This document shows positions 7,182 to 64,000 of a stretch of DNA of 64,000 bases, piece after piece. Source of the DNA: Eledone cirrhosa (taxonomy: Eukaryota); the NCBI GenBank assembly GCA_964016885.1, contig OZ024741.1, positions 68,386,001 through 68,450,000 on the forward strand, read 5' to 3'. A program made the translations under genes and the position numbers. The notes below the pieces were generated by a model. The model was not told the origin of the DNA. It did not search any database and saw only the letters and a list, made by a program, of their open reading frames with translations. Each line of letters starts with the position of its first letter. Position 1 is the stretch's first letter.

Positions 7182-7492
<311 letters not shown>

Positions 7493-8001: not shown

Positions 8002-8038
<37 letters not shown>

Positions 8039-8205: not shown

Positions 8206-8487
8206 CTGTGTATTTTTGAAAATACCATATATTTTCACTAGTTCTGACAGTTTGGCAGGTGAACAGTGCGCTGTACTGATGAAGGGTGATACCCAGAAAC
8301 ATTAGTGTCTGCAGTTCTGTTTGCATGCCAACACAAGAGCAAGAATAAAGTGTTCATTCTGCTGACATGGCTATAAAATTGAGGCTTGTTTGCAAAATTG
8401 CAAAATTGCAAACAAATCGAATGTTATTATTAATATTCGAAAAACTCAAATTACATTTATTGTATTCAGCCATGAAGAGCGAAATTT

Positions 8488-8658: not shown

Positions 8659-8869
8659 CGATCGACTTTCGTCAAATCGGACCGAGGGAACAATGTTTCC
8701 GTTGGTCTTTCCAATTGCTAATACTATCTATCGGTCGCAACTCCAGGTAGAAGGAGCAACGTGAAATAAAGTGTCTTGCTCAAGGACATAACGCATCACC
8801 TGGTCCAGGAATCGCACTCACAACCTTACGATTCCGAATCCAATTCCCTAACCACTCAGCCACACGCCT
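8659..8869 (-). mobile_element. tRNA-derived CORE-type SINE (family B), full length
   Basis: Reverse complement: ggcgtgTGGCTGAGTGGttagg (A-box)...gagtgcgattcc (B-box)...tgtccttgagcaagacacttt (CORE-like)...tail. Lies between (TA) tracts. Confidence 0.85.
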
Positions 8870-13494: not shown

Positions 13495-14540
13495 CGAGAG
13501 TGGGCTGAAAAGTGCATAGACTGTGGAAGCTTGCATGCAATAATTTCAACTCTTCTAAACGGCGGCATTGTTTCTTTCCAAGTAAACTGACATCTGACTA
13601 GTCAAAGAAAGCTTCGAGAGTAACTAGTAGCGACTTCTCTTGAAAATGGATAGAATTTGGCATCGTGGTGTTATCAAGTACTTGCAGAAAAAGGGTTTAG
13701 CCCCCAAGGACATTCATGCTAACATGGTTACTACATTAGATGATGACACTCTAACTTTATCAACAGCGAAAAGGTGGGCAACTGAAGTTAGGATGGAAAG
13801 GGAGAGTCTTGAAGGTGATCCAAGGTCTGGACGTCCTGCAACTACCACCAGTGAGGAAAACATTCATCGTGTTCACCACATGTTGATAGATGACAGGCGA
13901 TTGACTATAAATCAAATAGCCAATGCTATTAGCATATTCTGTGAAAGAGTTGAGAATATTCTACGCCATGAACTTGGCATGACGAAGGTTTCTACTCGGC
14001 GAGTGCCACGTCTTCTGATCAAAAGCGGACCAGGTTCATCACATCTCAGGAAAATCTGGCATTGTTTGAGACAGATCCAGTTGGTTTCCTTGAACGTTTC
14101 CTAAACCAGGATGAGTGTTGGGTTCATCACTTAGAGCCAGAGACAAAGAGACAATCTATGCAGTGGAAACACCTCTCCTCACCTACTCCAAAAAAGAATA
14201 ATTGTTTCTACTTTAGGCGCAAGGCCAGCAATTTGAAAGGGAGGGAAAGGGAGAGTCGATTAAATCGACCCCAGTGCGTTACTAGTACTTTATTTTATCG
14301 GCCCCATAAGGATGAAAGGCAAAGCTAATCTCGGCGGGATTTGAACACAGAATGTAAAGGGTCGTAACTCTATGCTGAAAAGCATGGTATCTGACGCTCT
14401 ACCGATACTGCCAATTCACTTCATCTGCAAGGAAGGTGATGGCCTTAGTGTTTTGGGATGCAAAAGGTGTTCTGTTTATCGACTATCTTCAAAAGGACCA
14501 CACCCTCAAGGGAGAGTATTATGCCAACTTGCTCAAATTT
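13495..14540 (+). mobile_element. Mariner (Tc1/mariner) transposon relic, 3'-truncated and interrupted by a SINE
   Basis: TA|CGAGAGTGGGCTGAAAAGT TIR-like start. ORF 13640-14104 has the HTH (RGVIKYL...D.PRSGRP) and RVPRLL (equivalent to WVP). FLNQDECWVHH carries the first catalytic D. VMALVFWDAKGVLFIDYL follows the SINE. Confidence 0.9.
14197..14420 (-). mobile_element. Family A SINE inserted in the mariner transposase
   Basis: Full reverse copy splitting the transposase between TPKK and SARKVM. Confidence 0.85.
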
Positions 14541-17600: not shown

Positions 17601-17760
17601 GCTAATCCGGTCCCTGTAAGCCTTACTTGCCGGTAAGGACAAGTTGAGCTTCCAGTAACCGGGTCCCTGTCTATGAGTTCTGTCAAGGTTGATCATGCAG
17701 GTCACTAACTTGTGGTCTGAATAGCCAACCATGCGCATTTTTGGACAACTTAAAAAGTCC
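14692..17760 (-). mobile_element. L1/Tx1-clade non-LTR retrotransposon, 5'-truncated, inserted in (GATA)n
   Basis: GC-rich island bounded by (ATAG)n at 14639-14691 and 17763-17807. The 3' UTR ends gtggcaAATAAAagaaacat(atct)n. Confidence 0.92.
14955..17738 (-). pseudogene. L1/Tx1 ORF2: APE C-terminus, reverse transcriptase and CCHC zinc knuckle, with one in-frame TGA at 15423-15425
   Basis: Motifs SDHKLV, GPGYWKLN, KSPGLDG, FRPITLLN, LDQSKAFDRVDH, RQGCPLS, YADD and GGLG. Read-through of the stop gives ERLYRHG...CPRCVCDEKTVAHALVHC, in frame with ORF 14955-15359. Confidence 0.92.
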
Positions 17761-17762
17761 TT

Positions 17763-17808
<46 letters not shown>

Positions 17809-18054
17809 GTTTTTCTTTATTTCAGACACAGACACACGGAGGGACGGACGGACAGACAGATAGATAGATATGTATATATTTATGTGTGTATTTATGTATG
17901 TATATAAAAGTTTAAAATAATGTAAAGACAAATTACAGAAGAGATACAAGACGTATCTAATCATGTACAAGTAACACCTCTTTTTTTAACAAAACACGAT
18001 GCAACCTATCTGCGGTACCCACAAAATCTTATATGAGAGTCACGTACTGAGCCA

Positions 18055-19104: not shown

Positions 19105-19970
19105 GTGGTAAAAACAGCCATGGGTACTTCAGTAACCCCAACATAAGCAAATCTAGTTAAGAAAATTTATGAAAAGTCACTAAAACATTTTGGAGTCAAT
19201 TTTTGTTGATATCTAAAAGGAAACGGTTTCGTATGGCTGTTGAATCCTGTGTGACAAAACTGTAGATAAACTTGAGAAGCTTACGAATATCAAAGATGCA
19301 GTAAATACGGATAGTCGGTTCACAATGGAATTTAGCAAAGAAGAACTCCTGTTTGGGATATTTTAATAACGATAATAGCTATACGGATAGAAATGGATAA
19401 CTGTTATAAACCCACAGACAAAACAATATTTATTATTCACATCCTGCAATCCTAAACATACACGAGTGTTTATTCTTTTTACTTTGGTGAAATAAATATG
19501 CACAATTGTTTCCAAGCCAACAATACGAGACCAACACTGACAGAATTATAAACTATCTTAATCCTCTGAAAATTTCCTAAAATTAGTGAAAAGAGCGAAA
19601 AATATAAATATTCCTGACTTATGGAGGGTAAAAATAAAGCCAAAGAAAACACTTCCATTCATATAAACATACAATCCGAGGAATATTGAAATCTATAATC
19701 ATATTCACAGGAATCTATCCATTATTTATAATGGTTAAAAAAAATATGAAAAGAATCTTGGAGAATCAACAAACTATAATGAGCAAACAACAACGAAAAT
19801 TTGCTTTAATTTCTCACAAGTGTAAAAATTCACAAATAGATTCCCAAACCTTAAATTGCAAAATGTGGAAAACCTACTTGCAGAATTTGTGAATATATAA
19901 CGGAGGGCTCGGAATTCAGTTTGATGATGACCAAACTTTTAATCTTAAAAATAGTTTTACATTTTCATCT
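19105..19970 (+). pseudogene. Penelope-like element relic (Neptune-like): RT C-half and Cys linker
   Basis: KTAMGTSVTPT*ANL, FTMEFSKEELLF, YKPTD..QYLLFTSCNPKHT and KCGKPTCRICEYI across frameshifts. Confidence 0.75.
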
Positions 19971-19994
19971 AGACCTACGCGCACGCACATACAG

Positions 19995-20645
19995 ACACTT
20001 TCACAAACCCAGTGAAAAACTTAGGTACATCATAAGGGTTCTAGTCACCCACCTATAGTCTCTTCATATATATCATCAATAAGTAAGAGGGTATCCAAAC
20101 TAACTTCTAGAAAAGTTATCTTCGACAGGGAGGGCCCCTACTGCAACGCAGCCCTAAGCAGCAGCGGCTTCTCAGAGAAAATCTCTTACTCTCCAGATCG
20201 CCGCCATATATCTAGCAAGAAAGAAAAATAAGCATAAAGCCGTCGTGCGGTTCCCACCACCTTTCGCACTCAACGTAAAGACTAACAAAAGTAGAAAATA
20301 CCTGGCACTTTCAGATTTGCACTTCTCTGTAGGACATAAATACCGGCAAATTGTTAGGTGCCACACAGTGAAAATAGGCTACTCGTGTACTAAAAACATC
20401 ACCAATAAAAGCAAGAGCCTTCCACCTTCCGGATGCTCATGCAGAAAGCCAGAAGCATGCCCTCTCGACCAACAGTGCAACACTCCAGCGGTAATATATG
20501 AAGCAGAAGTCACCCCCACCAACCAGAATCACCTAACAAAAGCCTGGACTTATGTAGTTATGTCTGGGAGCCGTTTAAAAAGCCGATTCTCGAACCACCA
20601 AATGACCTTCCGACATCCGGACAAAAAACATACCATCTTGTTTCA
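19995..20645 (+). pseudogene. Penelope-like element relic (different lineage): thumb/linker and GIY-YIG
   Basis: HKPSEKLRYI..SSHPP. ORF 20245 reads FPPPFALNVKTN...HF...TVKIGYSC..N...CSCRKPEACPLDQQC...VIYEAEV...YVVMSGSRLKSRFSNH. Confidence 0.8.
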
Positions 20646-21804: not shown

Positions 21805-21949
21805 CGCGTGTGCAGTGACCTTTGTTTTATTTTTGGTTTTCATTTTTTTGTTTTGTTTCCGTATTTTCTTCGATAATGGAAGAAGTGTCGACTTCACATC
21901 TAATGTGGATGAAGGTTTTGTGAAACGAATTCTTTTTTAATGATGATGA

Positions 21950-24900
21950 TAGTTGTGGTGTTGGTGATGGTAGTGGTGGTGTGGGAGTAGCCGTGATAAT
22001 GATGGTGGCGGCGGTAATAGTGATGGTGGTGGTGGTAGTGGTGATGGTGGTGATGGTAGTAGTGATGGTGGTGGTGGTAGTAGTGATGGTGGTGGTGGTA
22101 ATGGTGATGGTGGTGATGGTAGTAGTGATGGTGGTGGTGGTAGTAGTGGTGGTGGTGGTCGTAGTGGTGATGGTGGTGATGGTAGTAGTGGTGGTGGCGG
22201 CGGTAATAGTGATGGTGGTGGTGGTAGTGGTGATGGTGGTGATGGTAGTAGTGATGGTGGTGGTGGTAGTAGTGATGGTGGTGGTGGTAATGGTGATGGT
22301 GGTGATGGTAGTAGTGGTGGTGGCGGCGGTAATAGTGATGGTGGTGGTGGTAGTGGTGATGGTGGTGATGGTAGTAGTGATGGTGGTGGTGGTAGTAGTG
22401 ATGGTGGTGGTGGTAGTAGTGGTGGTGGTGGTGGTGGTAATGGTGATGGTGGTGATGGTAGTAGTGGAGGTGGTGGTGGTAGTGGTAGTGGTGTTGGTGG
22501 TGGTAATGGTGATGATGGTGATGGTAGTAGTGATGGTGGTGGTGGTAGTAGTGGTGGTGGTGGTGGTAGTGGTAGTGAAGGGGTAGCCGTGATAATGATG
22601 GTGGTGATGGTAATAGTGATGGTGGTGGTGGTAGTAGTGATGGTGGTGGTGGTAGTAGTGGTGGTGGTGGTGGTAGTAGTGATGGTGGTGGTGGTAGTAG
22701 TGATGGTGGTGGTGGTAGTAGTGATGGTGGTGGTGGTAGTAGTGATGGTGGTGGTGGTAGTAGTGATGGTGGTGGTGGTAGTAGTGATGGTGGTGGTGGT
22801 AGTAGTGATGGTGGTGGTGGTGGTAGTGATGGTGGTGATGGTAGTTGTGATGGTGGTAGTGGTAGTAGTGATGGTGGTGGTGGTGGTAGTGATGGTGGTG
22901 ATGGTAGTTGTGATGGTGGTGGTGGTAGTAGTGATGGTGGTGGTGGTGGTAGTAGTGATGGTGGTGGTGGTAGTAGTGATGGTGGTGGTGGTAGTAGTGG
23001 TGGTGGTGGTGGTAGTAGTGATGGTGGTGGTGGTAGTAGTGATGGTGGTGGTGGTAGTAGTGATGGTGGTGGTGGTAGTAGTGATGGTGGTGGTGGTAGT
23101 AGTGATGGTGGTGGTGGTAGTAGTGATGGTGGTGGTGGTAGTAGTGATGGTGGTGGTGGTGGTAGTGATGGTGGTGATGGTAGTTGTGATGGTGGTAGTG
23201 GTAGTAGTGATGGTGGTGGTGGTGGTAGTGATGGTGGTGATGGTAGTTGTGATGGTGGTGGTGGTAGTAGTGATGGTGGTGGTGGTGGTAGTAGTGATGG
23301 TGGTGGTGGTGGTAGTAGTGATGGTGGTGGTGGTGGTAGTGATGGTGGTGGTGGTAGTAGTGATGGTGGTGGTAGTGATGGTGGTGGTGGTAGTAGTGAT
23401 GGTGGTGATGGTAGTAGTGATGGTGGTGGTGGTAATAGTGATGATGGTGGTGGTGGTAGTGATGGTTGTGGTGGTAGTAGTGATGGTGGTGGTGGTAGTA
23501 GTGATGGTGGTGGTGGTGGTAGTGATGGTTGTGGTGGTAGTAGTGATGGTGGTGGTGGTGGTAGTGATGGTGGTGGTGGTATTGTGATGGTGGTGGTGGT
23601 AGTAGTGTTGGTGGTGGTGGTAGTTGTGATGGTGGTGGTGGTAGTAGTGATGGTGGTGGTGGTAGTAGTGATGGCGGTGGTGGTAGTAGTGATGGTGGTG
23701 GTGGTAGTTGTGAATGTGGTGGTGGTAGTAGTGATGGTGGTGGTGGTAGTAGTGATGGTGGTGGTAGTAGTGATGGTGGTGATGGTAGTAGTGATGGTGG
23801 TGGTGGTAGTAGTGATGGTGGTGGTGGTAGTAGTGATGGTGGTGGTGGTAGTAGTGATGGTGGTGGTGGTGGTAGTGATGGTGGTGATGGTAGTTGTGAT
23901 GGTGGTGGTGGTAGTAGTGATGGTGGTGGTGGTGGTAGTGATGGTGTTGATGGTAGTTGTGATGGTGGTGGTGGTAGTAGTGATGGTGGTGGTGGTAGTA
24001 GTGATGGTGGTGGTGGTGGTAGTGATGGTGGTGATGGTAGTTGTGATGGTGGTGGTGGTAGTAGTGATTGTGGTGGTAGTGGTAGTAGTGATGGTGGTGG
24101 TGGTGGTAGTGATGGTGGTGATGGTAGTTGTGATGGTGGTGGTGGTAGTAGTGATGGTGGTGGTGGTGGTAGTGATGGTGGTGATGGTAGCTGTGATGGT
24201 GGTGGTGGTAGTAGTGATGGTGGTGGTGGTGGTAGTGATGGTGGTGATTGTAGTTGTGATGGTGGTGGTGGTAGTAGTGATGGTGGTGGTGGTAGTAGTG
24301 ATGGTGGTGGTGGTAGTAGTGATGGTGGTGGTAGTGATGGTGGTGATGGTAGTTGTGATGGTGGTGGTGGTAGTAGTGATGGTGGTGGTGGTGGTAGTGA
24401 TGGTGGTGATGGTAGTTGTGATGGTGGTGGTGGTAGTAGTGATGGTGGTGGTGGTAGTTGTGATGGTGGTGGTGGTAGTAGTGATGGTGGTGATGGTAGT
24501 TGTGATGGTGGTGGTGGTAGTAGTGATGGTGGTGGTGGTGGTGGTAGTGATGGTGGTGGTGGTGGTAGTAGTGATGGTGGTGGTGGTAGTAGTGATGGTG
24601 GTGATGGTAGTTGTGATGGTGGTGGTGGTAGTAGTGATGGTGGTGGTGGTGGTGGTAGTGATGGTGGTGATGGTAGTTGTGATGGTGGTGGTGGTAGTAG
24701 TGATGGTGGTGGTGGTGGTGGTAGTGATGGTGGTGATGGTAGTTGTGATGGTGGTGGTGGTAGTAGTGATGGTGGTGGTGGTAGTAGTGATGGTGGTGGT
24801 GGTAATAGTGATGGTGGTGGTGGTAGTAGTGATGGTGGTGGTGGTAGTAGTGATGGTGGTGGTGGTAGTAGTGATGGTGGTGGTGGTAATAGTGATGGTG

Positions 24901-25030
24901 GTGGTGGTAGTAGTGATGGTGGTGGTGGTGGTAGTGATGGTGGTGATGGTAGTTGTGATGGTGGTGGTGGTAGTAGTGATGGTGGTGGTGGTGGTAGTGA
25001 TGGTGGTGGTGGTGGTAGTAGTGATGGTGG
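21950..25030. repeat. (GGT)n-derived minisatellite, dominant 21-mer ATGGTGGTGGTGGTAGTAGTG
   Basis: Direct reading. A unique marker gaaggggtagccgtgataatgatgg lies at about 22577-22601. Confidence 0.95.
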
Positions 25031-25149
25031 TGATGATATTGATGATAATAATGATGATGATACTGACAGCGACGATAATAACAACCTCCTCTGTTATGAT
25101 GATGATGATGATGTTGTGTTGTTGTTGGTGGCGGTTGTGGCGGTGGTCG

Positions 25150-25972
25150 TGGCGGCGTGGTGATGGTAGTGTTGGTGGTAGTGGCGGTGGTGGTGGTGGT
25201 GGTGGTGGTGGTGGTGATGCCAATGATGGTGGTGGCGGTGATAGTAGTGGTGATGGTAGTGTCGGTGGTAGTGGTGGTGCTAGCAGTGATGGTTGTGGTG
25301 GTGGTAGTGGTGGTGGTAGCAGTGATGGTAATGGTGGTGGTAGTGGTGGTGGTAGAGGTGGTGGTAGCAGTGATGGTTGTTGTGGTGGTGGTAGTGGTGG
25401 TGGTAGCAGTGATGGTTGTGGTGGTGGTAGCAGTGATGGTAGTGGTGGTGGTAGTGGTGGTGGTAGTGGTGGTGGTAGCAGTGATGGTTGTGGTGGTGGT
25501 AGTGGTGGTGGTAGCAGTGATTGTAGTGGTGGTGGTAGTGGTGGTGGTAGTGGTGGTGGTAGCAGTGATGGTTGTTGTGGTGGTGGTAGTGGTGGTGGTA
25601 GCAGTGATGGTTGTGGTGGTGGTAGCAGTGATGGTAGTGGTGGTGGTAGTGGTGGTGGTAGTGGTGGTAGCAGTGATGGTTGTGGTGGTGGTAGTGGTAG
25701 TGGTAGTGGTGGTGGTAACAGTGATGGTTGTGGTGGTGGTAGTGGTAGTGGTAGTGGTGGTGGTAGCAGTGATGGTTTTGGTGGTGGTAGTGGTGGTGGT
25801 AGCAGTGATTGTATTGGTGGTGGTAGTCGTGGTGGTAGTTGTGGTGGTAGCAGTGATGGTTGTGGTGGTGGTAGCAGTGATGGTAGTGGTAGTGGTAGTG
25901 GTGGTGGTAGCAGTGATGGTTGTGGTAGTGGTAGTGGTGGTGGTAGCAGTGATGGTTGTGGTGGTGGTGTTG
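25150..25972. repeat. (GGT)n-derived minisatellite variant with the GGTAGCAGTGATGGTTGT unit
   Basis: Direct reading. Mirrored at 57150-57645. Confidence 0.9.
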
Positions 25973-26171
25973 GCCGTCGTGATTCTTCACCTCCAGACAT
26001 CTACAGTCGATTTTATTTCATATTTATACTATCAAATTTTTGTTTGCGGTTATTTTTTTTTTCTTTTGTGGGGAGGGGGACATTTTTTTTTATCCGCCTT
26101 TCACTATATAAAAGCCCATCCCCCTACCTCCTTCTAGACAAGAACGAGACAAAGTCGACTCCCCCCCCCCC

Positions 26172-27155
26172 CCCATCAGCACCACCACCACCACCAACAC
26201 CACCACCACCACCACCACCATCACCAACACGACCACCACCACCACCATCACCATCACCTACACCACCATCACCAACACCAACACCACCACCACCACCAAC
26301 ACCACCACCACCACCATCACCAACACCACCACCACCACCAACACCACCACCATCACCTACACCACCACCATCACCAACACCAACACCACCAACACCAACA
26401 CTACCACCACCACCATCACCAACACCACCACCACCACCAACACCACCACCATCATCAACACCAACACCACCACCACCAACACCAACACCACCACCATCAC
26501 CACCAACATCACCAAAACCAACACCACCACCATCACCAACATCACCAACACCACCAAAACCAACACCACCAACACCAACACCAACACCAACACCATCACG
26601 AACACCAACACCACCAACACCACCATCACCAACACCAACACCACCACTACCACCACCACCACCACCAACACCAACACCACCACCAACACCACCACCAACA
26701 CCAACACCAACACCACCACCAACACCACCACCACCACCACCAATACCACTACCACCACCATCACCACCACCACCACCAACACCACCACCAACACGACCAC
26801 CAACACCAACACCAACACCACCACCAACACCACCACCACCACCAATACCACTACCACCACCATCACCACCACCACCACCAACACCACCACCAACACCACC
26901 ACCACCACCACCACCACCACCACCAATACCACTACCACCACCACCACCAACACCAACACCACCACCACCACCAACACCAACACCAACACCAACACCACCA
27001 CCAACCACCGTCACCACCACTACCACCAACACCAACACCACCACCACCACCACTACCAACACCACCACCACCACCAACACCACCACCACCACCACCACCA
27101 CCAATACCACTACCACCACCAACACCACAACACCACAACCAACACCACCATCACC
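26172..27155. repeat. (CCA/ACA)n degenerate trinucleotide array on the opposite strand to the upstream GGT arrays
   Basis: Direct reading. Mirrored at 55925-56950. Confidence 0.92.
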
Positions 27156-27474
27156 AGCCCCCTCCCCACACCACCCACACTGTCCACCGTTGAAGTTTGA
27201 ACTCCGAACCTAAATAATCTGAACATTTACCGTTCCTGTCAGTCCCACTTGATTTGTCTTCTGTTGAAAATGGAATATTCCGTACAATGAAGAGACGGAA
27301 TCATCGAGATTCTGGTTTTAAAGGTTAAATGCATACACACACACACACATACACACACACTCACACACTCTCTCTCACAAACATGTACATATATATATGT
27401 GTGTGTGTGTGCATGTGTGTGTGTGCATGTGTATTCATGCATACGTACATACAAATATATATATATATACGTAT

Positions 27475-27508
<34 letters not shown>

Positions 27509-27568
27509 GTATATATAATAATGAAATGACAGGAGGCTGGATTTGTGTAAATCCTTGAAAGGTTTATT

Positions 27569-27626
27569 ATACTATGATCATTTCAATGACCGGGTTCCGT
27601 ATGAATCCGGTGATATCATCAGGTAT
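27569..27626 (-). ncRNA. Type I hammerhead ribozyme in the pseudo-LTR. Copies: 30372-30429 (-), 31810-31867 (+), 47956-48013 (-, GAAA mutated), 48160-48217 (+), 51064-51121 (+)
   Basis: ATAC-CTGATGA-stem II (accgg.ttc/gaa.ccggt)-GAAA-palindrome tgatca-TA-GTAT (pairs with ATAC)-AATAAA. Confidence 0.8.
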
Positions 27627-30600
27627 TCGAAATATAATACGTGAATGTAATAGGTAAAATCCATGGGGCTGAAAATCGAGACCCGAGGGCGACCGCTATT
27701 CTGTTCCTTCAACCTCAGCCGGTCGCCCTGGAGTGACGTGGCTAAATTTTATAGTATGCTACTACCGGTCAGATGAACGAAAACAGAAAGAGATGGGAGG
27801 ATAGGTTAACGTCGATCCCATGACACAAGGTAAAAGAAAGAAAGAAAGGAAGGAGAAGAAGGGGGAAGAAAGAAGAAGAGAAGTCAGGGTTAATGTCAGC
27901 TAAAAGAGGAAGGTAACTACTACTGGTCAGATCTAGGCAAGCAAGAGGGGGAAGGAAGATAAGTCTGCGGGAGGAGGAGAGGAGAGAAGGAAGGGAAGAG
28001 AGAAGTAGAAAAGTAAGGGTTGATGGCTACAAGAAGGAAGATAGAAAGGAAGAGGAAGAAAGGTCGATATTAATGTCAGACCACAGTCAAGCCAGGAGTG
28101 GCGCGAGAAAATTTTCACAGGGACCCGCATCTTAGCGGAGATGAATATATTGGGAGTCAGTGTTTTACAGTGTTTAGACTTCTAGGATGAAGTTAAAAAA
28201 ATTTAATAATCAATATTCAATATTAAAGAGGTTAGAAAATTTAAAGTTCAACAGTTTAACAATTAATTATATAATAGTTCCGATTTGTTCTGTAATTTAA
28301 AGGTACTATTTGGCGGTTAAAACAACGGCCGCGCCCCGGGCCCCATGGCGAATTAAGCCACGCCGAGTATTTTCATTTACTGAAAGAAGGGGAAATTTAT
28401 TTTTCCAAGCACTCCAGGTGAGCTCGTTCGCCAGGGAGCTGGTCGCGCCGCCATTAAAACCCACCCAACAGTCCGACAGAAAGTTGGAACTTTAAAATTT
28501 AGCTTAGAGAAGTAAAAGAGTAATGGTTGATAGCTACAAGAAGGAAGATAGGAAGAGAGAGGAAGGAAGGTCGATATTAATGTCACACCACAGTCGGGCC
28601 AGGAGTGGCGCGACAAAATTTTCACAGGGACTCGCATCTTATCAGAGGTGAATATATTGGGGGTCAGTGTGTTACAATGTTTAGACTTATAGGATGAAGT
28701 TAAAAAATTAATAAATTAATAATCAGTATTCCATATTAAAGAGGTTAGAAAATTTAAAGCTCAACAGTTTCAGGTTGATATATATAATAGTTCCGATTTG
28801 TTCTGTAATTTAAAGGTACTATTTGGGTGTTAAAACACCGGCCGCGCCCCGGGCCCCATGGCTAATTAAGCCACGCCGAGTATTTTCATTTACTGAAAGA
28901 AGGGGAATTTATTTTTCCAAGCACTCCAGGTGAGCCCGTTCGCCAGGGAGCTGGTCGCGCCGCCGCCAAAACCCACCCAACGGTCCGACAGAAAGTTGGA
29001 ACTTTAGAATTTTGCTTAACTCTATCGGATGAAGTTGAAAGAATTCAGAATAACATTATGAAACTAAGGAGTAAGAGGATTGAGAATTGAACAAACAGAA
29101 AATTGAAGATTAGACATTCAAATAACTTCTATGAGGTTTTGGGTTGCGGGGTTTAATTAAATAGTCTTTTATGAAGAAACGTTAATTGTATTATGTAGAT
29201 GTGTAATTTATCCTAGTGGGATGTAGAGTACGGGATATAGTCGTGTAATGTTTAATTTTTGTTCTCAGGAGGAGACATTCTAGTGTCGTGTGCTAATGGG
29301 TACAGGTCCCAATGTGAGGAGTAGAAATACATGGATACATATAAGTGGAATACGTGGAAGAGCTAATGGGTACAGGTCCCAATGTGAGGGGTAGAAATAC
29401 ATGGATACATAGAAGAGGAATACGTGGAAGAGCACATTGGTACAGCAGAGGTATAAATATATAAACATATCAATATATAGGTATAAACATGTAAATGAAC
29501 CAACAAGAGTGGTGTTGGAGTAAGATGGAGAAATCAGGACATTAATACAGCAAACAAAGATGTGAAGATATAGATAAACAAACAATAGTCGTTGTCTAGT
29601 AAATGTAGAGTTCAAGAGACAGGAGAAATACAATATAGTTCAGGTTGCGGTATTTATGTTCCCAGGGGGAAATATTCCAGTGACGTGTGCTGAGGGTACA
29701 CGCGAGTAAAAGTCCGAATAAGGGAAGTAGAAAGTACATGGATGTATAGAGGTAGAATACGTGGAGGAGCATTAATACAGCAAATAAAGATGTAAAGATA
29801 TAAATAAACAAACAAGAGTCGTTGTCTATTAAATGGAGAGTTCAAGACACAGGAGAAATACAATATAGTTCAAGTTGCAGTCAGATAATGCATATAGATG
29901 TGGAAACAGTGCGTGTTCGAGTCTGGGAGTTCAGTGTGAGTTATACATGCCCAGAAGTATAGGGTAGCCATTTAGTTAATTCAGTGCAGTACAATACATG
30001 TTATGGTCCAGTCCGTGGAGTTTCGTCGAAGTTCGGATATTCTGTGAGGGGAGTAGCAATGGGCCAGGCGAAAGCACCGGGTAGCCAAAGTTCGAATTGT
30101 GGTTAGATATATTCAGTCCCATGCCGCTGTTGATTATTACATTTTGAAGTGCTCAACATTTCAGGAGCGTTATTTATTCAGGTTTGAGGTTCACCACTGT
30201 ATAGAGCTGGTCTATTCCGTATGGTCAATCGTAATGCAATAATATAGAGAGTACTCAACGTAAAGCAGTTCAACCGTCTTTGTTTTTGTAGTTGGTGGTG
30301 CTATTACGGAGTTAAATATTATAATGAAATGACAGGAGGCTGGATTTGTGTAAATCCTTGAAAGGTTTATTATACTATGATCATTTCAATGACCGGGTTC
30401 CGTATGAATCCGGTGATATCATCAGGTATTCGAAATATAATACGTGAATGTAATAGGTAAAATCCATGGGGCTGAAAATCGAGACCCGAGGGCGACCGCT
30501 ATTCTGTTCCTTCAACCTCAGCCGGTCGCCCTGGAGTGACGTGGCTAAATTTTATAGTATGCTACTACCGGTCAGATGAACGAAAACAGAAAGAGATGGG

Positions 30601-31462
30601 AGCATAGGTTAACGTCGATCCCATGACACAAGGTAAAAGAAAGAAAGAAAGGAAGGAGAAGAAGGAGGAAGAAAGAAGAAGAGAAGTTAGGGTTAATGTC
30701 AGCTAAAAGAGGAAGGTAACTACTACTGGTCAGATCTAGGCAAGCAAGAGGGGGAAGGAAGATAAGTCTGCGGGAGGAGGAGAGGAGAGAAGGAAGGGAA
30801 GAGAGAAGTAGAAAAGTAAGGGTTGATGGCTACAAGAAGGAAGATAGAAAGGAAGAGGAAGAAAGGTCGATATTAATGTCAGACCACAGTCAAGCCAGGA
30901 GTGGCGCGAGAAAATTTTCACAGGGACCCGCATCTTAGCGGAGATGAATATATTGGGAGTCAGTGTTTTACAGTGTTTAAACTTCTAGGATGAAGTTAAA
31001 AAAATTTAATAATCGATATTCAATATTAAAGAGGTTAGAAAATTTAAAGTTCAACAGTTTAACAATTAATTATATAATAGTTCCGATTTGTTCTGTAATT
31101 TAAAGGTACTATTTGGCGGTTAAAACAACGGCCGCGCCCCGGGCCCCATGGCGAATTAAGCCACGCCGAGTATTTTCATTTACTGAAAGAAGGGGAAATT
31201 TATTTTTCCAAGCACTCCAGGTGAGCTCGTTCGCCAGGGAGCTGGTCGCGCCGCCATTAAAACCCACCCAACAGTCCGACAGAAAGTTGGAACTTTAAAA
31301 TTTAGCTTAGAGAAGTAAAAGAGTAATGGTTGATAGCTACAAGAAGGAAGATAGGAAGAGAGAGGAAGGAAGGTCGATATTAATGTCACACCACAGTCGG
31401 GCCAGGAGTGGCGCGACAAAATTTTCACAGGGACTCGCATCTTATCAGAGGTGAATATATTG

Positions 31463-31596
31463 ATTTCTTTATTAGCCACAAGGGCGCAACAAGAAAGGGG
31501 ACAATACAAAGACATGCCGGGGATTTTACATACAGTCGTGTAAAAAAATATAAAAACAAACAATTTCAACAATCGAAATCCCCAATAGGTTAAAAA
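31463..31596 (-). mobile_element. Short 5'-truncated L1/Tx1-type 3' end inserted in the second tandem unit
   Basis: The minus strand ends tgtcccct...gcccttgtggctAATAAAgaaat, like the 3' ends at 14692 and 41243. It replaces about 34 bp present in unit 1 (28660-28693). Confidence 0.7.
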
Positions 31597-32062
31597 ATGA
31601 AGTTAAAAAATTAATAAATTAATAATCAGTATTCCATATTAAAGAGGTTAGAAAATTTAAAGCTCAACAGTTTCAGGTTGATATATATAATAGTTCCGAT
31701 TTGTTCTGTAATTTAAAGGTACTATTTGGCGGTTAAAACACCGGCCGCGCCCCGGGCCCCATGGCTAATTAAGCCACGCCGAGTATTACATTCACGTATT
31801 ATATTTCGAATACCTGATGATATCACCGGATTCATACGGAACCCGGTCATTGAAATGATCATAGTATAATAAACCTTTCAAGGATTTACACAAATCCAGC
31901 CTCCTGTCATTTCATTATAATATTTAACTCCGTAATAGCACCACCAACTACAAAAACAAAGACGGTTGAACTGCTTTACGTTGAGTACTCTCTATATTAT
32001 TGCATTACGATTGACCATACGGAATAGACCAGCTCTATACAGTGGTGAACCTCAAACCTGAA

Positions 32063-32132
<70 letters not shown>

Positions 32133-32199
32133 ATATATATATATATATGTGTATATATGTATATATATATGTATATATATATATATATATGTGTGTGTG

Positions 32200-32230
<31 letters not shown>

Positions 32231-32789
32231 TTGTGTGTGTTTATGTAGATACACGCTCACAAAGTCGTCTAGTTATATACATATATTAATAACGGGTATC
32301 TAACAGGGTGGGTTCTGCATAATTTGTAATGTCCTACCTGGTACCATACAAGAGTAATTCTTATCTCTGTGTGACCTTTTACCGATACAACATTCTTCAA
32401 TTTGCTACCATTAAGTTCAGGCACCTGTCTGTTTACCTGTGTCAATATGCCTTTATATGTCTGCATGTGTGTATACCTTTGTTTAGTGTGTGCATTCGTA
32501 TGTATGTATAAGCATGTATATAAGCAGCGAATTGGCTGGGCTGTTAGAATGTCGCATAGAATGCTCGGCAGTATTAGTTACGTCTGTCTGCACTAGGGTT
32601 CAAAATCTGCCGAGACCAAATTCACCTTTCATTCTTTCGAGGTCGATAAATAAAAAACCAGTACAGTACTGGGAGGGGGTTCGATTTTTTATCGATGCGT
32701 TCAGACCTGAAGACGAATGAGTTCCACTAGGTTTGAAATGCCCAAAACATGCAGTGTGCCTAGTCAAAATGGCGTCCCTACGACTCCAT

Positions 32790-33080
32790 CAGGAGTTAGT
32801 CTAAAAAAGTCTAAAGTCTGTCTTAAGCCAGAATGTTCGTTAGGCAGGCGCTAATCCCGGTTTCATGGCGTGAAACGAATGAGAATAAAAGGACGCCAGT
32901 CCATCGCAGGGTTAAACTCCCAGCCATTGCTGGTACTCATTTTCAGCTGAGTATACTGGAGCAACGTAAAATGAAGAATTCTGCTCAAGAACACAACACG
33001 CAACCCGGCGCAGGAATCGAACCCATGACATTATGATCACAAGTCCAACACCCTTACCACTCGTCCACGTGCCTCCACTT
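32790..33080 (-). mobile_element. CORE-type SINE (mirror copy at 54553-54845, +)
   Basis: ggcacgTGGACGAGTGGtaagg...GGTTCGATTCC...tgttcttgagcaga...cagctgaaaatgagtacc. Confidence 0.75.
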
Positions 33081-33459
33081 CGGAAGTTAAGAACTCTTTA
33101 TTTTTACTTATAACACCGACTATCTGTTAAGAATTGTTGCACTCTTAGTCACTAAATATGTCTCAGATTAACTAAGATTGTACGGCCTAGGTATCTTATG
33201 CATGTATACATATACATACATATGTGTGTGTGTATTTTCAGTACGTATGGGTATATCTATGGGTATATGTTGATATATGTATAGTTATCACAATAAACAA
33301 TTCATTGTAATAACGGATTCTGATTTAGGCACAAGGCCAACAATTTTAAGGGAGGAAAGTCGATTAAATCAACCCCAGTGCATTACTGCTGCTTTATTTT
33401 ATCGACCCCGTAAGTCTCGGTGGGATTTGAACTTCTTCCATATTCAACTTCGCTTTTCA

Positions 33460-33562
<103 letters not shown>

Positions 33563-33709
33563 TCTCTCTCCCTCTCTTCAGACCCAAAGAGGGATAAGCT
33601 CCGCTAGGTTTAAAATTTCCAAGACACGTCATGTGGCACGACTGTGCCCTTACGGCTCCACTAGGAACTAATAAACCATGTTGTAATGTTCATAAATATG
33701 TCTCTGTAG

Positions 33710-34022
33710 TTAAAATGTTAGCTTTGTAAAATCTATGATTCCGATACCTCTGTATGACACTTCTATGTGTGGAATTTTGTAGAGGGATTGCTCACAATTA
33801 GATATGCAGTGGCCCAGTGATTCAGACCTGCCAATCTCTAAAATCACAAACGGAGAGGACCATGAAAAACACTGTCTCAAAACAGGGAGAAATGAGGCAA
33901 ATTGGGGAGATTTTACATAATGAAAGTTATACCCATTTTCACAAGAGAAGATAGCTCTCACCCACCCCAAAGTGGATGTGAGATCTCCCCGTCAGATGAA
34001 GAGAGTTGACAGGCCTGGTGAT
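33710..34022 (-). pseudogene. Possible CR1/L2-clade LINE 3' fragment (mirror at 53655-53968)
   Basis: PGLSTLFI*RGDL resembles the L.L.TL..RR.RGDL motif of CR1 ORF2 C-termini. Otherwise degenerate. Confidence 0.3.
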
Positions 34023-34058
34023 TAGATCGTTATAGGCAACGATATTATTGTTCACAAA

Positions 34059-34240
34059 GGTGGATTGGCAGAGAGTCGGACGCCATGCTTTGCGGCATAG
34101 AGTTATGGCCCTTTACGATCTGAGTTCAAATCCCGCCGGTGTTAACTTAGCCTTTCATCCTTACTGAGTCGATAAAATAAAGCACCAGTAATGCACTGGG
34201 GTAATTGCTGTCCTTGTGACAAAAGCAGACACAATTATTG
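34059..34240 (+). mobile_element. Family A SINE with 15-bp TSD (mirror at 53440-53620, -)
   Basis: ATTATTGTTCACAAA at 34044-34058 and 34234-34248. Confidence 0.9.
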
Positions 34241-34286
34241 TTCACAAATGCATGGTATAAAATTTAACCCGCCCAAAAAAACCATT

Positions 34287-34357
<71 letters not shown>

Positions 34358-34790
34358 CGGTGAATCGAACAAAAATTGCCTCGTATTATTTGACTCCGTC
34401 TTCATTATATCTTCTCAGGTACAGGTTAAAATTATTTATTTCTACATAATGAATTCGTTGAAATAAGTACCAGACAAAATATTGGCATGGTTATAATGAA
34501 GTAAATACCTTTAAGAATGTGCCCCAAAGATTGCAATCAGTACAAGAATCAGAAAAAATAAGATTACCTGATTAATCGATAATTAGCTTCATTGCCACAA
34601 TCATCACTAGCAGCATATTCATTACTTTAAAAATAAAACCAATTGCTATCCATGAATCGTATTGTAAAGCCAGATATGTCGCCGTTGTCGTCTGCGCAAA
34701 GATTGGTTACTGTCTTTCCTCTTGCGTTTCTTCAGTGTGGTCATTTGAAGGCTGCATATCAATGAAGTCCAATCAAATCACCCACTCACT

Positions 34791-34828
<38 letters not shown>

Positions 34829-34838
34829 ACACATACAT

Positions 34839-34907
<69 letters not shown>

Positions 34908-34990
34908 CATACATACATACATACATACATACATACATACATACATACATACATACATACATGTGTGTGTATGTGTGTATAGCATATATA

Positions 34991-35079
<89 letters not shown>

Positions 35080-35781
35080 TACATACATACATACATACAT
35101 ACATACATACATACATACATACATACATACATACATACATACATACATAAGACTCTAGAAGGCGGGAATCGGTCAAAAAGTTCTTCCGGATTACTGAATA
35201 ATAACTGACAGTATAGGAAAATCATGAACAGTTTCAAAAGATAAAACCCTGGCCTTTGGTAAAATGTAAATGAGGAAGAGTGGAGGAAGAGAGAGACAGA
35301 CGGGAGAACAGAGAGACAGATAAATGGGAGCAAAGAGGGAGGGAGAAACAGAGAGATAGTATAAGAACAGACAGACTTTGAGGCAAATATACAAAGAAAT
35401 ATTGATTGTGTCAATGAAAAGAGACAGTGGAATATATACACACACACACACATATTTATATACACACACACACACACATATATATATATACTCACACAAA
35501 CACATATATACACACATATACACACATATATATACACACACACATATATATACACACACACACATACACACACACAAACATATATATATATATATATATA
35601 TATATCTAAGGCGGGTAAAATTCCCGTATATATGTATATATATATATATATATACATATATATACATATATATATATATACATATAGTAATAAATATATA
35701 TATATACATATAGTAATAAATATATATATACATATAGTAATAAATATATATATATACATATAGTAATAAATATATATATAC

Positions 35782-35812
<31 letters not shown>

Positions 35813-35848
35813 CATATATATGTATATATATATATATTTATATACATA

Positions 35849-35886
<38 letters not shown>

Positions 35887-35891
<5 letters not shown>

Positions 35892-36082
35892 TCTTCTACT
35901 ATAGGCGCACAAGGCCACCAATTTGAAAGGGAGGGGAAGTCGATTTAATCAACACAGTGTATTACTGGTACTTTATTTTATCGACCCCGTAAAGATGAAA
36001 GGCAATGCTATCCTCGGCGGGATTTGAACTCAGAACGTAAAGCGCCGTAACTCTATGCCGCAAAGCATGGTGTCCGACGTTT
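35887..36082 (-). mobile_element. Family A SINE (mirror at 52030-52225, +)
   Basis: Matches the family consensus. The 5' A-box is truncated. Confidence 0.8.
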
Positions 36083-36483
36083 TAAAGAAGAAGAAGAAGA
36101 AGAATTTCTATATTTAATTTCCATTAATATTATTATTCTTTTTTGTTCCTCTTTTAATATATTTATATCTTTAAATGTCAATTATGTTCCCTTCGCTTCC
36201 CTCTCTCCATTTATATACGTGTCTAGTATCTACCTGTGAGTCTATGTATGCATCTCAGTGTACTCTGTAAAACGTCTCATCCTTGTTGTTCGGTTGCTAG
36301 CAGGAATTACGAATTAAGTTTGGACTAATAGGAATATCTAAATAAATTTCTCTTGCGGACAGATAAAGTTTTAACCTAAATTTGCTAGCTTTCGGTGGAT
36401 TTACACACCTATACATATAGAGACAGCCACAGACACACACGCGCGAGCGCGTTCGCATACTTATGGAGATAGGAAGAGAGAAA

Positions 36484-36546
<63 letters not shown>

Positions 36547-36549
<3 letters not shown>

Positions 36550-36745
36550 TTATTAAAATAACAGATTGAAGTTTAAGCAAAGAATCGCTGCTTTCACCCC
36601 GTTAAGGGTGAAAACAGCGATTCTTTGCTTAAACTTTAATCTGTTATTTTAATAAATATTTGCTCTATGGTTCTTATATATCTGATATATATTTATCCTT
36701 ATCGAGCCCTCTTTGGATTTTAGACTTCACATTTATTATTATTAC
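36547..36745 (+). mobile_element. PLE pseudo-LTR 3' fragment with fold-back (36547-36657)
   Basis: About 53-bp inverted arms centred on ccc-cgttaa-ggg. Same family as 37650-37940 and 42350-42515. Confidence 0.8.
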
Positions 36746-46629: not shown

Positions 46630-46692
<63 letters not shown>

Positions 46693-46732
46693 ATATTAAC
46701 AAATGGAAACTATATTTATAAAACCATAGTTA

Positions 46733-46794
46733 TTTTATTATACATATTTCAAGGGCCACCAAGGCAATTTATGGTGCGCTTTCATCAGATAAAA
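46733..46794 (-). ncRNA. Type I hammerhead ribozyme, intact core
   Basis: ttttat-CTGATGA-aag..cacca/tggtg..ctt-GAAA-tatgta-TA-ataaaa (pairs with ttttat). Confidence 0.75.
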
Positions 46795-47129
46795 TACAAT
46801 ACAGAATTAGTTTTATAAATAAATATTGACATACCCTGAAAAAAGACAACCTTAACGGTTGGAGCTTCCTGGATAGGAATTATATATATAATATATATAT
46901 ATATAATTGTTTTGCAAGGTATTTATTATATATTTCTGGCAATATCATAACAACATGACCTTCCCCAAATATATATATATATATTATATATATATATTAT
47001 ATATATATATTATTGAGTAAAATGACAGGAGGCTGGACTGGTTAAATTCCTTAAAGATTTATTATACAGACTATGCACATTTTTATCCAGTTCTATCCAG
47101 TGGTGAAGCTACAAACCTAAATGAAATAC

Positions 47130-47901: not shown

Positions 47902-47904
47902 ATA

Positions 47905-50900
47905 ATAATGAAATGACAGGAGGCTGGATTTGTGTAGATCCTTGAAAGGTTTATTATACTATGATCATTTTAATGACCGGGTTCCGTATGAATCCGGTGA
48001 TATCATCAGGTATTCGAAATATAATACGTGAATGTAATAGGTAAAATCCATGGGGCTGAAAATCGAGACCCGAGGGTCTCGATTTTCAGCCCCATGGATT
48101 TTACCTATTACATTCAGCCCCATGGATTTTACCTATTACATTCACGTATTATATTTCGAATACCTGATGATATCACCGGATTCATACGGAACCCGGTCAT
48201 TGAAATGATCATAGTATAATAAACCTTTCAAGGATTTACACAAATCCAGCCTCCTGTCATTTCATTATAATATTTAACTCCGTAATAGCACCACCAACTA
48301 CAAAAACAAAGACGGTTGAACTGCTTTACGTTGAGTACTCTCTATATTATTGCATTACGATTGACCATACGGAATAGACCAGCTCTATACAGTGGTGAAC
48401 CTCAAACCTGAATAAATAACGCTCCTGAAATGTTGAGCACTTCAAAATGTAATAATCAACAGCGGCATGGGACTGAATATATCTAACCACAATTCGAACA
48501 TTGGCTACCAGGTGCTTTCGCCTGGCCCATTGCTACTCCCCTCACAGAATATCCGAACTTCGACGAAACTCCACGGACTGGACCATAACATGTATTGTAC
48601 TGCACTGAATTAACTAAATGGCTACCCTATACTTCTGGGCATGTATAACTCACACTGAACTCCCAGACTCGAACACACACTGTTTCCACATCTATATGCA
48701 TTATCTGACTGCAACTTGAACTATATTGTATTTCTCCTGTGTCTTGAACTCTCCATTTAATAGACAACGACCCTTGTTTGTTTATTTATATCTTTACATC
48801 TTTATTTGCTGTATTAATGCTCCTCCACGTATTCTACCTCTATACATCCATGTACTTTCTACTTCCCTTATTCGGACTTTTACTCGCGTGTACCCTCAGC
48901 ACACGTCACTGGAATATTTCCCCCTGGGAACATAAATACCGCAACCTGAACTATATTGTATTTCTCCTGTGTCTTGAACTCTACATTTACTAGACAACGA
49001 CTATTGTTTGTTTATCTATATCTTCACATCTTTGTTTGCTGTATTAATGTCTTTCCACGTACTCTACCTCTATACATCCATGTACTTTTTACTCCCCTTA
49101 TTCGGACTTTTACTCGCGTGCACCCTTAGCACACGACACAGGATTGCCCCCCCCCCCCCGGGAACATAAATACTGCAACCTGAACTATATTGTAATTCTC
49201 CTATGTCCTGATTTCTCCATCTTACTCCAACACCACTCTTGTTGGTTTATTTACATGTTTATACCTATATATTGATATGTTTATATATTTATACCTCTGC
49301 TGTACCAATGTGCTCTTCCACGTATTCCACTTCTATGTATCCATGTATTTCTACTCCTCACATTGGGACCTGTACCCATTAGCACACGACACTAGAATGT
49401 CTCCTCCTGAGAACAAAAATTAAACATTACACGACTATATCCCGTACTCTACATCCCACTAGGATAAATTACAGATCTACATAATACAATTAACGTTTCT
49501 TCATAAAAGACTATTTAATTAAACCCCGCAACCCAAAACCTCATAGAAGTTATTTGAATGTTTAATCTTCAATTTTCTGTTTGTTCAATTCTCAATCCTC
49601 TTACTCCTTAGTTTCATAATGTTATTCTGAATTCTTTCAACTTCATCCGATAGAGTTAAGCAAAATTCTAAAGGTCCAACTTTCTGTACGACCGTTGGGT
49701 GGGTTTTAGCGGCGGCGCGACCGGCTCCCTGGCGAACGGGCTCACCTGGAGTGCTTGGAAAAATAAATTTCCCCTTCTTTCAGTAAATGAAAATACTCGG
49801 CGTGGCTTAGTTCGCACTGGGGCCCGGGGCGCGGCCGGTGTTTTAACCGCCAAATAGTACCTTTAAATTACAGAACAAATCGGAACTATTAGATATATCA
49901 ACCTGAAACTGTTGAGCTCTAAGTTTTCTAACCTCTTTAATATGGAATATTGATTATTAATTTATTAATTTTTTAACTTCATCCTATAAGTCTAAACATT
50001 GTAACACATTGACCCCCAATATATTCACCTCTGCTAAGATGCGAGTCCCTGTGAAAATTTTGTCGCGCCACTCCTGGCCCGACTGTGGTGTGACATTAAT
50101 ATCGACCTTCCTTCTTCTCTCTTCCTATCTTCCTTCTTGTAGCTATCAACCATTACTCTTTTACTTCTCTAAGCAAAATTTTAAAGTTCCAACTTTCTGT
50201 CGGACTGTTGGGTGGGTTTTAATGGCGGCGCGACCGGCTCCCTGGCGAGCGAGCTCACCTGGAGTGCTTGGAAAAATAAATTTCCCCTTCTTTCAGTAAA
50301 TGAAAATACTCGGCCTGGCTTAGTTCGCCATGGGGCCCGGGGCGCGGCCGGGGTTTTAACCGCCAAATAGTACCTTTAAATTACAGAACAAATCGGAACT
50401 ATTATATAATTAAATGTTAAACTGTTGAACTTCAAATTTTCTAACCTCTTTAATATTAAATATTGATTATTAATTTTTTTAACTTCATCCTAGAAGTCTA
50501 AACACTGTAAAACACTGACTCCCAATATATTCATCTCTGCTAAGATGCGGGTCCCTGTGAAAATTTTCTTCCGCCACTCCTGGCTTGACTGTGGTCTGAT
50601 ATTAATATCGACCTTTCTTCCTCTTTCTTTCTATCTTCCTTCTTGTAGCCATCAACCCTTACCTTTCTACTTCTCTCTTCCCATCCTTCTCTTCTCCCCT
50701 CCCCCTGTCTTCTTCCCGCAGACTTACCTTCCTTCCCCCTCTTGCTTGCCTATATCTGACCAGTAGTAGTTGCCTTCCTCTTTTAGCTGACATTAACCCT
50801 GGCTTCTCTTCTTCTTTCTTCCCCCTTCTTCTCTCTCCTTCCTTTCTTTCTTTCTTTTACCTTGTGTCATGGGATCGACGTTAACCTATGCTCCCATCCC

Positions 50901-51536
50901 TTTCTGTTTTCGTTCATCTGACCGGTAGTAGCATACTGTAAAATTTAGCCACGTCACTCCAGGGCGACCGGCTGAGGTTGAAGGAACAGAATAGCGGTCG
51001 CCCTCGGGTCTCGATTTTCAGCCCCATGGATTTTACCTATTACATTCACGTATTATATTTCGAATACCTGATGATATCACCGGATTCATACGGAACCCGG
51101 TCATTGAAATGATCATAGTATAATAAACCTTTCAAGGATTTACACAAATCCAGCCTCCTGTCATTTCATTATAATATTTAACTCCGTAATAGAAGGCGTG
51201 TGGCTGAGTGGTTAGAGTATTGGATTCACAATCGTGAGGTTGTGAGTTCGATTCCTGAACCAGGCGATGCGTTATGTCCTTGAGCAAGACACTTTATTTC
51301 ACGTTGCTCCTTCTACCTGGAGTTGCGACCGATAGATAGTATTAGCAATTGGAAAGACCAACGGAAACATAGTTTCCTCGGTCCGATTTGACGAAAGTCG
51401 ATCGACTAGAATATAGCACCACCAACTACAAAAACAAAGACGGTTGAACTGCTTTACGTTGAGTACTCTCTATATTATTGCATTACGATTGACCATACGG
51501 AATAGACGAGCTCTATACAGTGGTGAACCTCAAACC

Positions 51537-51540
<4 letters not shown>
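47905..51540 (+). mobile_element. Second insertion of the non-coding Penelope-like/retrozyme element: inverted head (47905-48076), then pLTR-body-pLTR with a 2904-bp HHR-to-HHR period
   Basis: Reverse-complement homologue of 27518-30490 with scattered substitutions and different internal sub-repeat numbers. Both ends lie in (TA)n. Confidence 0.88.
51193..51412 (+). mobile_element. CORE-type SINE (family B) inserted in the element's terminal repeat, TSD ATAG
   Basis: The empty site actccgtaATAGcaccacc is seen at about 48277 and 31927. The filled site has ATAG at 51189-51192 and 51413-51416. Confidence 0.92.

Positions 51541-64000
<12,460 letters not shown>

Follow-up and report, generated by a model that had tools for sequence, protein, structure and literature searches.

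How does a unit of almost three kilobases, which carries hammerhead ribozyme motifs at its boundaries and no protein of its own, come to be inserted twice within a short stretch of a genome? This question is raised by 64,000 nucleotides of Eledone cirrhosa DNA (Eukaryota; GenBank assembly GCA_964016885.1, contig OZ024741.1, positions 68,386,001 to 68,450,000 of the forward strand), referred to below as the window and numbered from its first letter, which consist of repeat-rich DNA with a 40% GC content and numerous (TA)n tracts. An earlier note, made from the letters of this window, had described the unit as a recently mobile and protein-free parasite of the reverse transcriptase (RT)/GIY-YIG protein of a Penelope-like element (PLE), and this description agrees with what we found: a PLE anatomy, a target duplication revealed by comparison with an empty site, a divergence of ~0.5% within insertions and no open reading frame (ORF). 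We estimate at roughly two in three the probability that the element is a non-autonomous PLE, in which pseudo-long terminal repeats (pLTRs; minimal hammerhead plus tail) surround ~2.6 kb of non-coding and largely self-duplicated DNA and which would be mobilised in trans from uncut RNA.

Anatomy and target of the two insertions

Comparing the window with itself showed that 27518-28659 recurs at 30321-31462 with a period of 2803 bp and 5 differences over 1142 bp (copy A), and that a homologue of this sequence lies in the opposite orientation at 47902-51542 (copy B). Measured from one predicted cleavage site to the next, the unit is 2803 bp long in copy A and 2904 bp long in copy B (48214-51117), and the two units are identical at 2679 of their 2732 ungapped aligned columns (98.1%), with 6 indels. 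Both insertions consist of a partial tandem that forms pLTRs, and both have an inverted and 5'-truncated copy together with a tail at one end only. This combination is the signature of endonuclease-bearing PLEs (PMC8557442, PMC8969392). In each insertion, two element 3' ends face outward, a short one 55 nt past the cleavage site (end-1, +55) and a long one 199 nt past it (end-2, +199), and the tail corresponds to the 144 nt between them. The long arm of copy A stops at end-1 and its short inverted arm at end-2, while copy B shows the reverse.

In copy A, the complete unit (27518..30320, minus strand) has the short end as its 3' end and includes an internal copy of the 144-nt tail (30177..30320, minus strand). 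It is preceded by a 5'-truncated upstream unit (30321..31787, minus strand), which differs from the full unit at the 5 of 1142 positions given above and at 2 of another 191. This upstream unit is interrupted by a foreign 134-bp piece (31463..31596) that replaces 34 bp of the unit, whose sole match elsewhere in the window is an exact one of 18 bp at 41243, and which presumably resembles the 3' end of a long interspersed element (LINE). The inverted 5' arm (31784..32062, plus strand) comprises a pLTR with an intact hammerhead and the tail; it extends from position -80, counted from the cleavage site, to end-2 and joins the long arm through a 4-nt microhomology.

In copy B, the inverted arm (47902..48076, minus strand) extends from position -117, counted in the same way, to end-1. 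The arms meet in a fold-back junction (48030..48140) that consists of a near-perfect hairpin followed by a slippage duplication of ~28 bp. The complete unit then occupies 48134..51037 (plus strand), and a terminal pLTR with tail (51038..51542, plus strand) reaches end-2 in (TA)n. This tail has received a secondary insertion resembling a short interspersed element (51193..51412, plus strand), which is flanked by a 4-nt duplication and is 95% identical to 8659-8869. Elsewhere in the window, the body of the unit has no significant match except a diverged relative of 125 bp (~80% identity; 47004..47128) in which the two types of end again point outward and which retains the 3' half of a related hammerhead; the idea that this relative stops exactly at a cleavage site was dismissed after alignment.

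Both insertions sit in (TA)n, which is found at all four of their ends, and both types of element end share a few A/T letters with the target. A TA landmark interrupted by a G flanks copy A on both sides and is found once, at the same place, in an uninterrupted (TA)n tract at about 55550..55581. This tract belongs to the other arm (the mirror arm) of a large inverted duplication and represents the empty allele of insertion A. Since the landmark is doubled around copy A and single in the empty allele, copy A has a target-site duplication of 13-15 bp within the (TA)n tract (27503..27517 on the left and 32062..32076 on the right, the exact edges being blurred by microhomology). For copy B, the mirror arm stops at the right end of the insertion, so that it offers no empty counterpart. 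The two arms of that duplication (21938-36553 and 51550-61133) are ~0.2% diverged in their non-repetitive parts, with 6 mismatches over 2699 such columns, and they correspond either to a true inverted duplication or to two haplotypes. Its inner break lies in the (TA)n tract at the right end of copy B and, on the other arm, beside a palindrome at ~36546-36660. With the aim of telling a circular from a tandem template, we tried to date insertion A against the mirror duplication, and the counts of 7/2954 versus 7/1612 differences were not significantly different (p 0.27).

The hammerhead motifs

The hammerhead at the unit boundaries, which the earlier note had read from the letters, was recovered with a descriptor scan. 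It consists of a 4-bp stem I, the core, stem II, a GAAA box, an 8-nt palindromic stem III and a UA site followed by AATAAA, and this minimal type I motif is intact in five of the six copies, each near the 3' end of a pLTR. In copy A, the intact motifs lie in the terminal pLTR (27569..27626, minus strand), at the tandem junction (30372..30429, minus strand) and in the inverted arm (31810..31867, plus strand); in copy B, they lie in the first pLTR (48160..48217, plus strand, with cleavage predicted between 48213 and 48214) and in the terminal pLTR (51064..51121, plus strand). The sixth motif belongs to the copy B inverted arm, and its GAAA box is altered by a G-to-A change. In dinucleotide shuffles of the unit, the form with the 8-nt palindrome was never seen (0/2000) and any form of the motif appeared in 0.15%. 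Rfam E-value scans of the whole window and of copy B returned microsatellite and hairpin look-alikes and no hammerhead family; the hammerhead call thus comes from the descriptor scan, the Rfam models having missed all copies.

Stem II of the motif has a U.U at its base and a C.C at position 4. Two further pLTR families in the window (motifs at 7894-7948 and 46731-46796) also have C.C at stem II position 4, together with an 8-nt palindromic or near-palindromic stem III, a UA site and a 3' end ~50-58 nt downstream. The flanking pairs differ among the three families and yet stay paired, as expected from compensatory changes, although this three-family pattern was formulated post hoc, so that its count speaks to non-chance only. 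As for the U.U at the base of stem II, we counted it in 14 of the 26 Hydra rows of File S2 of PMC8557442. Such mismatches could suggest decay, but since the C.C is common to the two other pLTR families and the U.U to these Hydra rows, the motif is a conserved PLE-type hammerhead with a predicted cleavage site. In the predicted minimum-energy fold of the monomer motif, the core pairs with stem III to give an inactive rod, and the entire pLTR folds no better than shuffles (z -0.96). Minimal hammerheads of PLEs are described as needing dimers and as cleaving weakly in vitro (PMC4209133).

The two other families were observed in the following settings. The second (7490-8004) is a fold-back pair of pLTRs in a TA/GA tract, which carries the motif at 7894-7948 and has one short and one tailed end, as do copies A and B; the third is a solo pLTR (46690-46880, minus strand) with the C.C mismatch in stem II. 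More hammerhead-like motifs with a different stem III lie at 7270-7367 and 8270-8315, one of them as a fold-back pair.

Coding potential, age and sources of the unit

Internal direct repeats make up 1829 of the 2904 bases of the copy B unit (~63%). In copy A, they include two tandem sub-repeats of ~507 bp (27999..29018, minus strand; ~90% identical) and a block of ~230-bp and ~70-bp repeats (29255..29881, minus strand) whose repeat number differs between copies A and B. Repeats 1 and 2 of the 507-bp pair are distinguished by the same 31 sites in both copies, which indicates that this duplication is older than the split between A and B.

The unit lacks the single ORF for RT and GIY-YIG that autonomous PLEs have: the longest stop-free stretch of copy B spans 112 codons, and five of the six indels between A and B are not multiples of three. 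The window does contain, at 19957-20634 (plus strand), a decayed RT-thumb/GIY-YIG region of a Hydra-clade PLE with a CxCx5C linker, cut off by a (CATA)n tract, and this remnant was used as a control. A Hydra search was seeded with part of it (20218-20607), and the best 150 of 1366 matches were used; the four longest seed matches that we checked have the DKT and CxCx5C features, which define Hydra. With this Hydra-clade set, TBLASTN gave a best E-value of 0.72 inside the two insertions versus 1e-25 at the control remnant, and profile hidden Markov models scored the units below 0 bits versus 119-135 bits for the same remnant (E 5e-37). By these comparisons, a relic of a Hydra ORF is excluded from the unit. 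Thus, the claim that no RT or endonuclease remnant can be recognised in the body stands for an ORF and for the Hydra clade, by profiles and TBLASTN, while other clades were weakly probed. The first ~490 nt past the cleavage site gave no homologues in the two sense frames that read through it, which are weak negatives, and no usable match in the third, which was queried as a 58-aa piece in Atlas only; a separate homologue search with the PLE remnant of the window gave no matches either. We also considered the 'IRTL..R..F' and 'NGYP' look-alikes near 48480-48630 as an RT-thumb relic and rejected them, since they lie in different frames and their motif counts are below the shuffle mean.

The duplicated parts within the insertions differ at 10 of 2090 positions (0.5%). 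When A is compared with B, the 3' half differs at 44 of 1458 columns (3.0%) and the 5' half at 9 of 1274, the split point having been picked after the data had been seen. The two insertions thus come from different sources, partly recombined or unevenly constrained, and represent at least two diverged lineages; because their 3' halves are 3.0% apart and parts of the same insertion 0.5%, further source copies exist or once existed. Gene conversion between the 507-bp sub-repeats was tried as the cause of the difference between A and B and rejected, as only 2 of 32 changed sites are common to both.

We also surveyed 15 sequencing runs for 278 sampled 31-mers of the unit, and found shares of 0.59-0.60 in four runs labelled organism A and of 0.45 in one run labelled organism B, these five runs coming from two studies, one of which is possibly the source of the window. 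Six other runs (organisms C to H) had shares of 0.07-0.16 and were left out of the count. Since 0.53 of the 31-mers of the copy A unit are present in copy B, a share close to those of the runs, the latter look like those of a family that is ~2% diverse. One run of 88 million letters had the same 31-mer share as runs 16 times larger; if that run is genomic DNA of a gigabase genome, a sequence present in one copy would hardly ever be retained in it, which is a hint, and no more, of a high copy number. A pattern scan of metagenome contigs returned one locus with 23-26 bp in common only (L001), which we took as chance, and pattern scans of viral contigs and prokaryote genomes returned no matches.

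Mode of mobilisation, alternatives and known relatives

How could such a unit move? In the mechanism that we favour, transcription of a tandem source locus would begin ~110-120 nt upstream of a hammerhead and yield a linear RNA that spans more than one unit and stays uncut until it is used. An autonomous PLE would supply the RT/GIY-YIG protein, which would bind the pLTR/tail region and make staggered cuts in the two strands of a (TA)n tract; each of the resulting DNA ends would then prime reverse transcription at one of two sites within the RNA (+55 and +199). Head-to-head joining of the two cDNAs, through microhomology or fold-back, would leave one arm long and the other short and inverted, with a tail on one side only. 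The palindromic stem III of the hammerhead would need a partner copy to pair with, and hammerhead cleavage would not be the route of insertion.

Two RT start sites fit this locus because exactly the same two ends recur in both insertions with their positions exchanged, and the absence of any arm that stops at the cleavage site fits priming at two sites on RNA that has not been cut. Relative to a cleavage site, the 5' ends of the four arms lie at -80, -109 to -117, -117 and -1326, and none lies at 0, where RT run-off on a cleaved linear monomer would have placed it; this favours uncut linear RNA. A circle would allow read-through, but it leaves the clustering of three ends near -100 unexplained, whereas a linear transcript started in the pLTR would explain all arm ends, provided that the source of copy A held at least two units. 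These features match what was reported for a PLE reconstituted in vitro, where uncleaved RNA was the dominant template and the tail was explained by two internal RT start sites (PMC11167929). The (TA)n preference of Hydra elements, the remnant in the window and the U.U at the stem II base of many Hydra hammerheads make Hydra the leading candidate for the partner clade.

Several points weigh against this scheme. The start near -115 is read from three arm ends only, and a circular template would account for the long arm of copy A (more than 1.5 units) just as well as a tandem source. The tail has 144 nt versus the usual 30-40 bp of PLEs (PMC8557442), the published Hydra-1_Obim hammerhead differs by eye from that of the unit, and no autonomous PLE sharing this pLTR was found in the window. 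The sample comprises only two long copies, and the master loci and the autonomous partner are thus putative. The lack of coding traces is also less telling in some searches than in others: Pfam, run on six frames over ~2745 of the 2904 bases of the unit, gave nothing below E 0.04, a weak blank given that intact PLE proteins give a weak RT/GIY-YIG match in 1/4, and a weak test for Poseidon, Neptune, Nematis and Naiad remnants, limited to 12 short motifs, found 2 of them against a shuffle mean of 3.3.

The earlier note had gone further in proposing that cleavage from hammerhead to hammerhead releases a monomer of 2.8-2.9 kb that could circularise. On such an account, paired hammerheads would cut a tandem transcript down to the monomer, which would be ligated into a circle and copied by a PLE RT in rolling fashion into partial tandems. 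The intact and structurally conserved hammerheads at every unit boundary speak for this scenario, circles have been proposed for PLEs (PMC4209133) and shown for animal retrozymes of 200-400 nt (PMC7229834), and the copy A arm of more than 1.5 units could derive from one. Yet all four arms continue past the cleavage site instead of ending at it; three arm ends cluster 80-117 nt upstream of it, as linear 5'-end run-off would give, and the second hammerhead family folds back ~150 nt upstream of its own site. The hammerhead itself also looks ill-suited, as the minimum-energy fold of the monomer sequesters its core, stem I has 4 bp, the partner hammerhead is 2.8 kb away and PLE minimal hammerheads are the poor in vitro cleavers mentioned above. 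Moreover, uncleaved RNA was the main template in the reconstituted PLE, cleavage proved dispensable for insertion of Anolis Poseidon (PMC11167929), and Xenopus retrozyme dimers were cleaved in vitro in 1 of 9 cases (bioRxiv 10.64898/2026.07.22.740005). We thus regard a giant retrozyme as quite unlikely. Its extension to a whole animal family of ~2.8-2.9 kb protein-free RNA replicons, in which dimer-activated hammerheads of a structural class of their own (C.C in stem II, 8-nt palindromic stem III) release a circularising unit RNA that a PLE protein copies back, is a long shot; if true, the retrozyme would have three times the size of any other that we found in reports, would escape screens for tandem repeats with a 1 kb cap and would be common to several related species.

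A different objection is that the unit is a gutted by-product, whose body would be the long untranslated region (UTR) of an autonomous PLE that lost its ORF in one or two master loci, the copies being occasional offspring rather than a self-sustaining family. In its pLTR, its tail and the anatomy of its insertions, the unit is exactly like an autonomous PLE, and the ~490 nt past the cleavage site, where PLE ORFs start, are unique and A-rich. Recently active Penelope insertions of Octopus vulgaris average ~5.5 kb (1,795,539 bp over 329 insertions, PMC13282606), which, for an octopus host, leaves space for an ORF and kilobases of UTR. We nevertheless find this origin rather unlikely: the two source lineages, whose 3' halves are 3% apart, are both collinear and without an ORF, near-identical sequence occurs under two organism labels and, although these are weak negatives, two of the three sense frames of the first ~490 nt hold no coding trace. 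As for an assembly artefact, or a passive segmental duplication of a unit that never retrotransposed, the window does have a large inverted duplication whose inner break coincides with the right end of copy B; that copies A and B differ in their flanks, in opposite end usage, in private indels and in 53 substitutions, and that copy A has a target duplication relative to the empty allele, makes it very improbable indeed.

As a non-autonomous PLE, the element belongs to a category that has already been described and its mechanism is borrowed, so that its novelty lies in its size and completeness. MRC1 and Chlamys-N4_cRei of the Chlamydomonas Chlamys PLEs are likewise protein-free partners of PLEs with pLTRs, a head-to-tail arrangement and microsatellite targets (PMC8557442, PMC9977147). 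They differ in that they come from a green alga and a clade with an N-terminal endonuclease (EN), mostly lack canonical hammerheads, target (C)n or (CA)n and have a known partner; no lengths for them were found in the searched text and supplements of these two papers. Hydra, Penelope/Poseidon and Neptune, PLEs with a C-terminal EN and hammerheads, share with the unit a pLTR with a minimal 3' hammerhead, the partial tandem, the inverted 5' copy, the one-sided tail and a unit near 2-3 kb (PMC8557442, PMC4209133, PMC11167929), and Hydra also shares the (TA)n target. The unit departs from them in lacking an RT/GIY-YIG ORF and in its 144-nt tail, and its stem III is a perfect 8-nt palindrome, whereas the Hydra rows mostly have 9-10 nt with a loop of 1-2 nt (PMC8557442).

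Animal non-LTR retrozymes are also non-coding tandem units delimited by type I hammerheads (PMC7229834; bioRxiv 10.64898/2026.07.22.740005), and the latter source argues that they derive from PLE pLTRs. They form arrays and are expressed as circles, while the unit described here, known from its sequence, is a partial tandem of 2.8-2.9 kb with an inverted arm and a tail; like them, it has a hammerhead in every unit and no coding capacity, but its tandem unit exceeds the 1 kb below which theirs remain. At about ten times the ~300 bp of typical animal retrozyme units (PMC7229834), as first noted, it is also about three times longer than the largest one that we found in print, where a screen capped at periods of 1000 bp gave a range of 51-972 bp (bioRxiv 10.64898/2026.07.22.740005). 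Large retrotransposon derivatives (LARDs) of LTR elements likewise hold kilobases of non-coding DNA between terminal repeats and move in trans (PMC6431247), but they belong to the LTR class, and the unit would be their PLE-class analogue. Non-autonomous Penelope elements of an animal are also known from Heliconius, described simply as short (PMC6685494).

A literature search, with most subscription papers outside its reach, found no multi-kilobase, hammerhead-bearing and ORF-less animal PLE, and two 11-nt pLTR motifs had one chance match, in unrelated GC-rich sequence, in the Craig 2021 supplement text, in which long runs are partly cut. The element may already exist as an unnamed consensus in Repbase, Dfam or the octopus repeat library, in which 190 Penelope-like consensus sequences are listed (PMC13282606). 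If our reading is correct, animal PLE parasites need not be small, and an element of the length of an autonomous PLE can move with a pLTR and a tail alone. This class, a PLE counterpart of LARDs, would escape both retrozyme screens, with their period limit of 1000 bp, and ORF-based PLE annotation, and it would provide a natural test case for two questions about PLEs, namely the role of the hammerhead and the origin of tails and inverted arms.

Other features were observed in the window besides the two insertions. No tRNA genes were found. A LINE-type RT ORF of 797 codons lies at 14958-17816 (minus strand; Pfam RVT_1, E 1.7e-25) next to a zf-RVT piece, and 13631-14325 (plus strand) holds a remnant of a Mariner-type transposase with a weak HTH_48 match. 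Long satellite arrays with a 21-bp period (22000-25965 and 57157-64000) flank the large inverted duplication.

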